Shown here piece after piece: positions 29,642-30,414 of a stretch of 64,000 nt of DNA; position 1 is the first letter of the stretch, and every line of letters begins with the position of its first letter. The DNA lies in the IMG/VR virus record IMGVR_UViG_3300015214_000028, positions 1-64,000 of that record, one strand, 5' to 3'. Position numbers and translations under genes: made by a program. The notes below the pieces were generated by a model. The model worked only from the letters and a program-made list of their open reading frames with translations. It searched no databases and was not told the DNA's origin. Origin of the DNA: a virus (Duplodnaviria; Heunggongvirae; Uroviricota; Caudoviricetes).

Positions 29642-29705
29642 ATATGTATGCCTTGAGAGATCAAGGCGCTTGCCTGAGTGGTGGAATAGGTAGACACAAG
29701 AGACT

Positions 29706-30358
29706 TTAGCGTTAATTTGAGCACTAAAGTAGGGATATTTTATGTGAATGTTGTCAAATTCGGCGAACCCTTTAAAATGGCAACGCCGAGCCAAGCTTGA
29801 AAATTATTATGAGTTATGAGACAAAATACCCAGATTGGAAAGATAGAGTAATTAATGCTAGTAAAAATAGCAAGAGTGCAACCCAGGCAGCGGCTATACT
29901 AGATATTAAGTACGATACATATAAAAAATATGCAATAAAGTACGGGTGTTTTGTCACTAACAAGTCGGGAAAGGGTACTACAAAAATAAGGGGAACTAAA
30001 ATTCCCTTGGAAGATATTGTAATAAAAGGATTACACCCACAATATCAGTCCAACAAGTTAAGATTAAGGCTATTAGAAGAGGGATATTTCGAATCCAAGT
30101 GCTATAACTGCAATTTAACTACTTGGTTGAATAATCCAATACCGTTAGAGTTAGAGCATATAGACGGTAACCCTTCTAATAATTTAATTAATAATCTTAC
30201 ATTATTGTGCCCCAACTGTCATGCCTTTACTCAGACATATAGAGGCAGAAATATAAATTTCAAGAAGGTGTAGAGACTAAACGGCAACCATCTAGACCAG
30301 ATGAAGACATAGTCCAGACCACAAACTAGAGATAGGTAGTGAAAACTATAGTGGTACG
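29706..30358 (+). mobile_element. group I-like self-splicing intron carrying an HNH homing-endonuclease ORF
   Basis: Inserted after the wobble U34 (the canonical tRNA-Leu(UAA) intron site). Ends in G (omega-G). GACTA ... TAGTC P7-like pairing with an intervening hairpin CATCT-agacc-AGATG. Confidence 0.6.
29797..30273 (+). CDS. HNH homing endonuclease, intron-encoded
   Basis: C-terminal CYNCN...HIDGNPSNN...LLCPNCH (HNH/Zn motif). Confidence 0.7.
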   Translation: MKIIMSYETKYPDWKDRVINASKNSKSATQAAAILDIKYDTYKKYAIKYGCFVTNKSGKGTTKIRGTKIPLEDIVIKGLHPQYQSNKLRLRLLEEGYFESKCYNCNLTTWLNNPIPLELEHIDGNPSNNLINNLTLLCPNCHAFTQTYRGRNINFKKV

Positions 30359-30414
30359 AAAATCTCTCGCCGAAAGGCGTGCCGGTTCGATTCCGGCCTC
30401 AGGTACCAATTTTT

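Follow-up and report, generated by a model that had tools for sequence, protein, structure and literature searches.

The question raised by this locus is what has divided a tRNA-Leu(UAA) gene within a phage tRNA cluster, and whether the dividing sequence can be considered a mobile element. The DNA concerned, referred to below as the window, is a stretch of 64,000 nucleotides (nt) of a virus of the Caudoviricetes, corresponding to positions 1 to 64,000 of the IMG/VR record IMGVR_UViG_3300015214_000028. Judged from its sequence, the interrupting element is in all likelihood a mobile group I intron, inserted, between U34 and A35, into the one tRNA-Leu(UAA) gene that the tRNA cluster of a T5-like phage contains. 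A gene for an HNH endonuclease is located within one of the intron loops, L6.

The tRNA gene is composed of two exons on the plus strand. Exon 1 (29672-29706) comprises the 5' strand of the acceptor stem, the D arm, the 5' strand of the anticodon stem and C32, U33 and U34, as delimited by ARAGORN on the spliced sequence, while exon 2 (30359-30408) comprises A35, A36, A37 and A38, the 3' strand of the anticodon stem, the long variable arm, the T arm, the 3' strand of the acceptor stem, A73 and CCA. Direct reading places the 5' end of the tRNA at G29672, with a G1.U72 pair, the discriminator A73 and the CCA encoded at 30406-30408; the wobble base U34 is T29706, the last base of exon 1, and A30359 is the first base of exon 2. 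Joined, the exons give in ARAGORN an 85-nt type II tRNA-Leu(taa) with a long variable arm and all four stems formed. The exon/intron boundaries are unique, because only CTT|...G|AAAA gives back the 7-nt loop CUUAAAA, and the ligated junction expected in spliced RNA would read GAGACUU|AAAAUCUCU. A first-pass annotation, made from the sequence alone, had proposed a type II tRNA-Leu with paired stems and the loop CTTAAAA, divided after the wobble U by an insert ending in G. The halves do fold as a cloverleaf when joined, U34 (29706) and the terminal G (30358) are where this description requires them, and exon 2, given there as 30359-30408, retains its start, as only this start restores the loop. 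Exon 1, placed there at 29671-29705, has to be shifted by one base on account of the G1.U72 pair and of U34 at 29706, and the insert of 653 nt becomes an intron of 652 nt (29707-30358).

In the genomic sequence the split tRNA (29672-30408, with a 652-nt intron) is called by ARAGORN only if introns are allowed, and neither ARAGORN in its default mode nor Rfam at the gathering score gives a call at this locus. The label that ARAGORN attaches to the split gene, tRNA-Phe(gaa), is a consequence of the intron being set one base off; it is ruled out by the group I rules and by the continuous alleles, which are Leu(UAA). The spliced anticodon arm, AGAGACTTAAAATCTCT, was found in at least 120 viral contigs in a scan of IMG/VR. 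Continuous tRNA-Leu(UAA) genes from five phage tRNA clusters (L379, L330, L354, L358 and L395; L followed by three digits denotes our compared loci) share with the joined exons at least 35 identical nt spanning the junction, and blastn aligns them over 67-87 nt with 92-97% identity. By this comparison the match of the joined exons to continuous alleles is far beyond chance, and the five genes can serve as empirical empty sites, the L379-type intron-less allele having the sequence GGTGAAATAGGTAGACACAAGAGACTTAAAATCTCTCGC. No tRNA-Leu(UAA) gene other than the split one is present in the tRNA cluster of the window, and UUA accounts for 29% of the Leu codons in its long open reading frames (ORFs).

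The insert, recognised as a group I intron from partial Rfam matches, covariation and an nhmmer profile, has its omega-G at 30358. Its helices, all on the plus strand, were compared in alignment A1, which consists of the ORF-deleted intron of the window and 18 related split-tRNA introns from viral contigs (19 rows). In P1 (29704-29721) the exon CUU (29704-29706) is paired with the internal guide GAG (29719-29721), with the U34.G29719 wobble at the 5' splice site, and depending on the pair it is formed in 14-16 of the 19 aligned sequences; the UUU immediately 5' of the guide can pair with the AAA of exon 2 as a potential P10. The P2 hairpin (29722-29746; CAC-UAAAGUA / UAUUUUA-U-GUG) is capped by a GGGA tetraloop of the GNRA type, and among relatives all of its pairs (10/10) have changes on both sides. 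P3, made of the 5' strand GUUGUC (29750-29755) and the 3' strand GGCAAC (30283-30288), is paired in 99.1% of the cells, with double changes in 5/6 pairs. P4 (29759-29790; UUCGGCG/CGCCGAG), 98.5% paired and also present in the unconstrained minimum-free-energy (MFE) fold, encloses a minimal P5 (29768-29780). P6 (29796-30264) joins CUUGAAA (29796-29802) to UUUCAAG (30258-30264), is 95.8% paired and bears the loop L6 with the ORF. P7 (30275-30314), in which GACUA (30275-30279) faces UAGUC (30310-30314), is 100% paired with double changes and encloses the 3' strand of P3 together with P8 (30289-30303; CAUCU-AGACC-AGAUG; 86% paired, double changes); it had been noticed in the first-pass annotation as a P7-like pairing and proves to be the true P7. 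Finally, P9 (ACCAC/GUGGU) and the inner P9a (GUAGU/ACUAU), capped by a GAAA tetraloop (30318-30355), are 96.8% and 92.6% paired, respectively, and are found in the MFE fold. A 7-bp pairing, ACUUUAG/CUAAAGU, was rejected as a candidate for P1: it sets U34 opposite A and clashes with P2, which covaries in relatives. By the similarity of its core to tRNA introns of the Azoarcus and Anabaena types, the intron can be classified as IC3-like.

Taken as a whole, the hand-drawn structure has 88.6% of the cells of A1 paired, compared with 33-43% when the 3' partners are slid, and double-sided changes are found in 42 of 62 pairs (the 62 include the anticodon stem, P1, P2 and P9), values that none of the shuffles (0/500) reached. 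Because the structure was drawn from the window, whose own pairs are thus met by construction, the covariation support is that of the other 18 rows. When 17 related tRNA introns, the window and its closest relative being left out, were made into an nhmmer profile, this matched the 64-kb window twice: at 29696-29802 (E 7.7e-19, model positions 3-109) and at 30264-30369 (E 5.8e-22, model positions 114-228), and the gap between them falls exactly at L6. The unconstrained fold of the ORF-deleted RNA recovers P4, P5, P6, P8, P9 and the anticodon stem (z = -2.4). The group I core anticipated in the first-pass annotation is also detected by the Rfam model RF00028, in the form of partial, sub-threshold matches on either side of the ORF, at 29703-29874 (23.1 bits) and 30218-30339 (20.1 bits). 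Relatives without an ORF, or with an ORF in loop L1, pass the gathering score of this model (L112, 69.3 bits; L058, 70.2 and 62.6 bits; L055, 63.3 bits).

The ORF in L6, which the first-pass annotation had likewise assigned to the HNH group, is intact and extends from an ATG over 465 nt (29809-30273, plus strand; 154 aa). Based on PHROG, tblastn and motif residues it can be considered an F-TflIV-like HNH homing endonuclease gene. Its product belongs to PHROG 10822, 'HNH endonuclease' (E 1.8e-29), and in tblastn 92% of its length aligns, at 37.6% identity, with hegA, 'H-N-H endonuclease F-TflIV', of T5/BF23 (E 7e-19 to 1e-18); C98, C101, H117, N129, C134, C137 and H138, which form the HNH and zinc motif, are invariant in a 12-sequence alignment of the family. 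In NCBIfam a weak IscB-HNH match was obtained and nothing more, and a search for a related solved structure found none. The ATG is located 6 nt past the 5' strand of P6, and the last five codons with the TAG stop overlap the 3' strand of P6 and J6/7; therefore translation and ribozyme folding would probably exclude each other on one RNA molecule.

Among the relatives of the intron L121 is the closest, with 72.5% identity across the complete split gene and 82% for the core after deletion of the ORF. Its architecture is that of the window, and compensatory changes are seen in P4 (C-G to U-A), P5 (CC/GG to AGC/GCU) and P8 (U-A to C-G). Of the best 80 relatives of the endonuclease in IMG/VR, about 40 lie inside split tRNA-Leu(taa) genes. 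The ORF is located in L6, as in the window, in L121, L127, L139 and L165, and in loop L1, upstream of P2, in L151, L158, L163, L036 and L055. In yet another group a free-standing endonuclease gene adjoins an intact tRNA-Leu(UAA) gene: L120, L122, L123, two cultured phages (Edwardsiella phage PEi20 and Klebsiella phage Muenster) and the megaphage LR756502. Free-standing F-TflIV-like HNH genes 5-60 nt after an intact tRNA-Leu(UAA) are found at L120 2913-3450, L200 (PEi20) 1387-1950, L201 (Muenster) 1325-2268 and L202 (LR756502) 1342-1920; the ORF of PEi20 is unannotated. The closest homolog of the window protein, 77-78% identical, is encoded by L120, 5 nt downstream of the intact gene. Relative to intact tRNA-Leu(UAA) genes, free-standing copies of the clade are found on the upstream side, on the downstream side or in antisense orientation, and some adjoin other tRNAs. 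The pattern classification of endonuclease context and of anticodon arms is error-prone (L163 and L158 were mislabelled, and GAAA loops were taken as junctions), and its counts are to be read as rough. In a neighbour-joining (NJ) tree of the endonucleases, made without bootstrap, the two states interleave, and the window groups with L120, L121 with L122, L163/L158 with L159, and L165 with L167. From these genomic positions the endonuclease clade is seen to be tied to phage tRNA-Leu(UAA) genes.

The alleles themselves provide a further lead. Those bearing the intron almost always read GACUU|AAAAUC, and the intact alleles that adjoin free-standing copies are mostly CACUUAAAAUG or GUCUUAAAAAC, which differ in the base pairs flanking the loop; variants found beside free-standing copies include CACTTAAAATG and GTCTTAAAAAC. 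In this small sample, compared heuristically, the differences are such as would be expected for self-immunity. Two side observations were made on the same set of loci. In L131, L134 and L149 ARAGORN -i puts the split tRNA-Leu(taa) and the HNH ORF on opposite strands, which suggests either antisense endonuclease genes inside the intron or an artefact of the tool, and in L139 a 'skipping-rope' RNA (RF02924, 60.4 bits) at 3459-3528 directly follows the split tRNA gene.

A course of events compatible with these features can be proposed. The gene would be transcribed, possibly from a sigma-70-like promoter candidate, TTGAAA-17-TATAAT (29613-29641, plus strand), a pattern match of 11/12 in a consensus scan located about 30 nt upstream of the tRNA 5' end, and the intron RNA would fold into the P1-P9 ribozyme. 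Free guanosine bound in P7 would attack the phosphate after U34, held in the U.G wobble of P1 (CUU/GAG); the 3' OH of U34 would then attack after the terminal G at 30358, and the ligated exons would yield a functional type II tRNA-Leu(UAA) reading UUA and UUG. In a mixed infection the endonuclease of the T5 F-TflIV family predicted from L6 would nick or cut, within or close to the sequence of the anticodon loop, those tRNA-Leu(UAA) alleles of related phages that have no intron, and recombinational repair from the intron-bearing genome would copy the intron with its endonuclease gene into the recipient, that is, homing would take place.

Several observations weigh against a mobile intron of this kind. 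No close relative of the window phage with an empty site was found that would document recent mobility, and the target of the endonuclease is deduced from its genomic association. The RF00028 matches of the window do not reach the gathering score of 50, because the 465-nt ORF fills L6, and the Pfam HNH match is weak (16.7 bits vs a cut-off of 21.4). P5 has only 2-3 bp, P1 has a U-U mismatch where it extends on the intron side, and the pairing ACUUUAG/CUAAAGU competes with P1/P2 in the MFE fold. No obvious Shine-Dalgarno sequence precedes the ATG of the window, which has GAAA there, while L121 has GAGG at the equivalent place, inside the 5' strand of P6. From the Rfam and Pfam scores onwards, all of this would also fit a decaying relic, with an inactive intron or endonuclease gene and a tRNA gene that is effectively a pseudogene or is very poorly spliced. 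Such decay is nevertheless very improbable, given that the core helices are all intact, no invariant position of the 19-sequence alignment is missing (necessarily so, as the window is one of its rows), both the U.G pair and omega-G are found, and the ORF is full length with complete catalytic and zinc residues. Moreover, UUA is a major codon and the cluster has no back-up tRNA-Leu(UAA) gene, and the short P5, CCUUUAAAAUGG, is common in relatives that pass Rfam, e.g., L112 and L032.

The free-standing members of the clade, on whichever side or strand of an intact tRNA-Leu(UAA) gene and beside other tRNAs, the L120 homolog among them, and the F-Tfl enzymes of T5, free-standing in the tRNA region (PMC2330249), would fit an intron that splices while its HNH gene is a passenger, the enzyme cleaving elsewhere in or near the tRNA cluster or mainly assisting splicing, and the intron spreading by co-conversion instead of classical site-specific homing. 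This is unlikely, as the endonuclease genes inside tRNA-Leu(UAA) introns, about half of the 80 best relatives, occupy two different loops, L1 and L6, which is hard to explain unless the target of the enzyme is in the tRNA-Leu(UAA) gene; the intact alleles beside free-standing copies also mostly depart from GACUU|AAAAUC at the loop-flanking pairs, in the small heuristic sample described above, as for self-immunity. It could also be supposed that the phage has co-opted the intron, which would then be maintained by selection in addition to selfish spread, either to delay or gate tRNA-Leu(UAA) or to hold a pool of precursors that host anticodon nucleases cannot cut. The circumstances in favour are that the sole tRNA-Leu(UAA) gene is interrupted in a phage with UUA as a favoured codon, that ORF-less versions persist in Agrobacterium phage Atu_ph07 and the megaphage LR756501, and that phage tRNA clusters take part in defence conflicts, both as targets and as counter-measures (PMC13096335); such a role is not required by any feature of the sequence, and we consider it quite improbable. 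A chimeric assembly of tRNA fragments with unrelated intron DNA is scarcely credible: no point supporting it was found, the boundaries follow the group I rules exactly, and the same exon-intron-ORF-intron-exon order occurs in the independent contig L121 and, at lower identity than its 72.5%, in dozens of other contigs. The mobile intron therefore remains the preferred reading of the locus.

The phage itself can be recognised from its proteins. The window encodes a T5-type DNA transfer protein (phrog_1745, 4e-147), which we take to be the equivalent of A1 of T5, a protease-capsid fusion, portal, large terminase, DnaB helicase, DNA polymerase, SbcC and ribonucleotide reductase, and its tRNA cluster extends from 25163 to 33256. 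From this gene content it is classified as a T5-like lytic phage, and the lytic-phage tRNA cluster named as the setting in the first-pass annotation is confirmed. When the locus and 24.6 kb of the window were compared by megablast with 50,697 GenBank phages, no match was obtained, and the phage is therefore one without a close sequenced relative in that set; in distant blastn only exon 2 with the downstream tRNA-Ser was matched. Matches in Vibrio (Achelous) and Pseudomonas (ZC08) were considered as empty sites and rejected, as the genes are tRNA-Leu(UAG). For the AAA ATPase encoded upstream of the split gene (28615-29610) peptide patterns retrieved no relatives from IMG/VR, and therefore no syntenic intron-less phage was found.

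Two other features of the window are worth mentioning. The DNA polymerase gene is probably split by a second group I intron (45545-46818). The polymerase fragments are encoded at 44028-45560 and 46819-47496 (phrog_17 positions 537-1013 and 1047-1232), and between them are an RF00028 match at 45545-45795 (40.7 bits, below the gathering score of 50; E 5e-9 when 551 nt were searched) and an ORF of 344 aa (45750-46784) with no PHROG match and no significant Pfam match; polymerase-like coding sequence appears to restart near 46725. The second feature is an odd tRNA at 30517-30617, two genes downstream of the split tRNA-Leu, with the anticodon loop CUUAUAC (UAU, Ile-AUA) and an extra stem-loop of about 29 nt, CUGGU-UAGAUAA-ACCAG, at the place of the variable arm. 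It scores 56.5 bits with the Rfam tRNA model only when 26 nt are taken as an insertion, and ARAGORN calls it, as Ile(tat) i(39,12), only with introns allowed. Long Ile(tat) tRNAs (about 90-94 nt) were called by ARAGORN also at L122 3453-3546, located after the free-standing HNH gene and with a comparable extra arm, and at L379 1153-1242, the latter known from the ARAGORN call alone.

Among known systems, the cyanobacterial tRNA-Leu(UAA) introns share with the window the U34/A35 site, P1 of CUU/GAG with the U.G wobble, the GNRA-capped P2, the sequences of the P3-P8 core (J3/4, P4, J6/7-P7), the GAAA-capped P9 extension and the end ...G|AAAAUC. The cyanobacterial introns sampled differ from it in P9 (AAUUCUC.../GAGAAU), in their longer P5 and P6 regions and in forming a separate cluster in the NJ tree. 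Cyanobacterial tRNA-Leu introns are normally without an ORF. The identity of the window intron to bacterial introns is about 60% or less, compared with 82% to L121. An intron of the Azoarcus type was compared through L044, whose tRNA(CAU) intron we take to be of the Azoarcus pre-tRNA-Ile(CAU) IC3 type. It has near-identical core stretches, GUCAAAUUCGGCGAA, GGCAACGCCGAGCCAAGCUU and GAAGGUGUAGAGACUA-ACGGCA, a 3-bp exon part of P1 and a compact design as in the window; the Azoarcus intron differs in host tRNA and insertion position, in an extended P5 (P5a) and in the lack of an ORF.

The endonuclease has its own counterparts. The T5/BF23 enzymes F-TflI/II/IV include a homologous protein (hegA F-TflIV) and likewise belong to the tRNA cluster of a T5-like phage, but their genes are free-standing between tRNA genes, whereas that of the window is in a ribozyme loop, L6, inside a tRNA gene. 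The introns of I-HmuI (SPO1), I-BasI (Bastille) and I-PfoP3I (Pf-WMP3) resemble that of the window in being phage-borne, of group I and provided with an HNH gene in a peripheral loop, and homing is expected of them in mixed infection; unlike it, they interrupt protein-coding genes such as that of DNA polymerase. A 2026 survey of complete bacterial genomes reports most tRNA introns to be without endonuclease genes and 81% to belong to subgroup IC (PMC13011429). Phages are outside its subject. For Bacteroidota it describes a tRNA-Leu(UAA) intron with an HNH gene; by this description the intron, from a bacterial complete genome in distinction from the window, has the same host gene and an HNH-family gene inside an intron of >500 nt (PMC13011429). 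This type may include L036 and L055, two viral contigs in which the ORF is located in L1. A few kb from their split tRNA-Leu genes, these two contigs contain further strong RF00028 introns (L036 3725-3949, 95.8 bits; L055 7024-7270, 65.9 bits).

As to the spread of such introns, the IC3 core motif GGCAAYSCYGAGCCAAGC is present in at least 119 IMG/VR contigs (L001-L119), and among the contigs listed about 35 split tRNAs over the motif were recognised by ARAGORN -i: Leu(UAA), Arg(UCU), Gln(CUG), Met/Ile(CAU), Thr, Lys, Asp and others. By these calls, elements similar to that of the window are not unique to it, dozens being present in public viral contigs. The Gln(CUG) genes of L011 and L072 have a 768-nt intron with an HNH-like ORF, the Met/Ile(CAU) gene of L012 has a 792-nt intron, and there is a possible split suppressor (tca) tRNA; the ARAGORN labels 'Tyr(ata)', 'Ser(aga)' and 'Phe(gaa)' in L032, L038, L056 and L084 stand for Leu(UAA) with the intron placed 1-2 nt off. 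Unannotated ORF-less introns at U34/A35 of tRNA-Leu(UAA) were seen in Atu_ph07 (NC_042013 near 112.9 kb; L206 1240-1601; 278 nt), in which a coding sequence for a 'hypothetical protein' overlaps the 3' part of the split gene, and in the uncultured megaphage LR756501 (L207 1432-1722; 205 nt). The cultured phages HTVC120P and Kolpuevirus were rejected as sources of tRNA introns, their IC3-like matches being in protein genes (capsid, DnaB).

A scan of bacteria for the IC3 core motif, with one genome per species, gave at least 120 loci; among the matches listed tRNA-Leu(UAA) is the most frequent host, its 42 split genes including many from cyanobacteria. In an NJ tree of 60 tRNA-Leu(UAA) introns, again without bootstrap, the window is placed with introns from viral contigs, apart from the cyanobacterial and other bacterial clusters. 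Thus the comparison with the cyanobacterial and plastid intron drawn in the first-pass annotation is valid for the site, which is identical (U34/A35), and not for the lineage, the window belonging to a phage-associated subclade in this tree. The designation of a phage clade is provisional, because an IMG/VR contig may also contain DNA of a prophage or of a host. No account of a phage tRNA gene with a group I intron was found in the searchable literature, a coverage that leaves out subscription journals and thus does not prove absence.

The mechanism proposed here is well known, and the interest lies in meeting it in a phage tRNA gene and in a natural series in which the endonuclease gene is either free-standing or borne by the intron. 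As regards annotation, standard tools (ARAGORN in default mode, Rfam at the gathering score) miss the split gene, and therefore the phage would be recorded without tRNA-Leu(UAA); the same applies to the cultured Atu_ph07 and to a published megaphage. The statement of a 2014 review that all phage introns then known were in protein genes, in spite of the many phage tRNA genes (PMC3984707), needs revision in view of public viral contigs with many split tRNA genes, Leu(UAA), Arg(UCU), Gln(CUG) and Met/Ile(CAU) among them. Additionally, these small ribozymes may be of interest to users of the permuted-intron system of Anabaena tRNA-Leu for circular RNA. The origin of mobile introns also becomes testable, since close pairs such as the window and L120 (77-78%) can be used to probe the move of a site-cutting free-standing endonuclease into an intron. 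Tentatively, and with rather more doubt than confidence, it can be proposed that phage tRNA clusters represent a large reservoir of group I introns of tRNA genes, undescribed in the searchable literature, and that the F-TflIV-like clade has moved repeatedly between the free-standing and the intron-borne (L1 or L6) states. If this is true, this family of loci would represent a natural time series of the merging of a free-standing endonuclease and a self-splicing intron into a mobile intron, and the patchy spread of tRNA-Leu introns among bacteria could plausibly have phages as its vectors.

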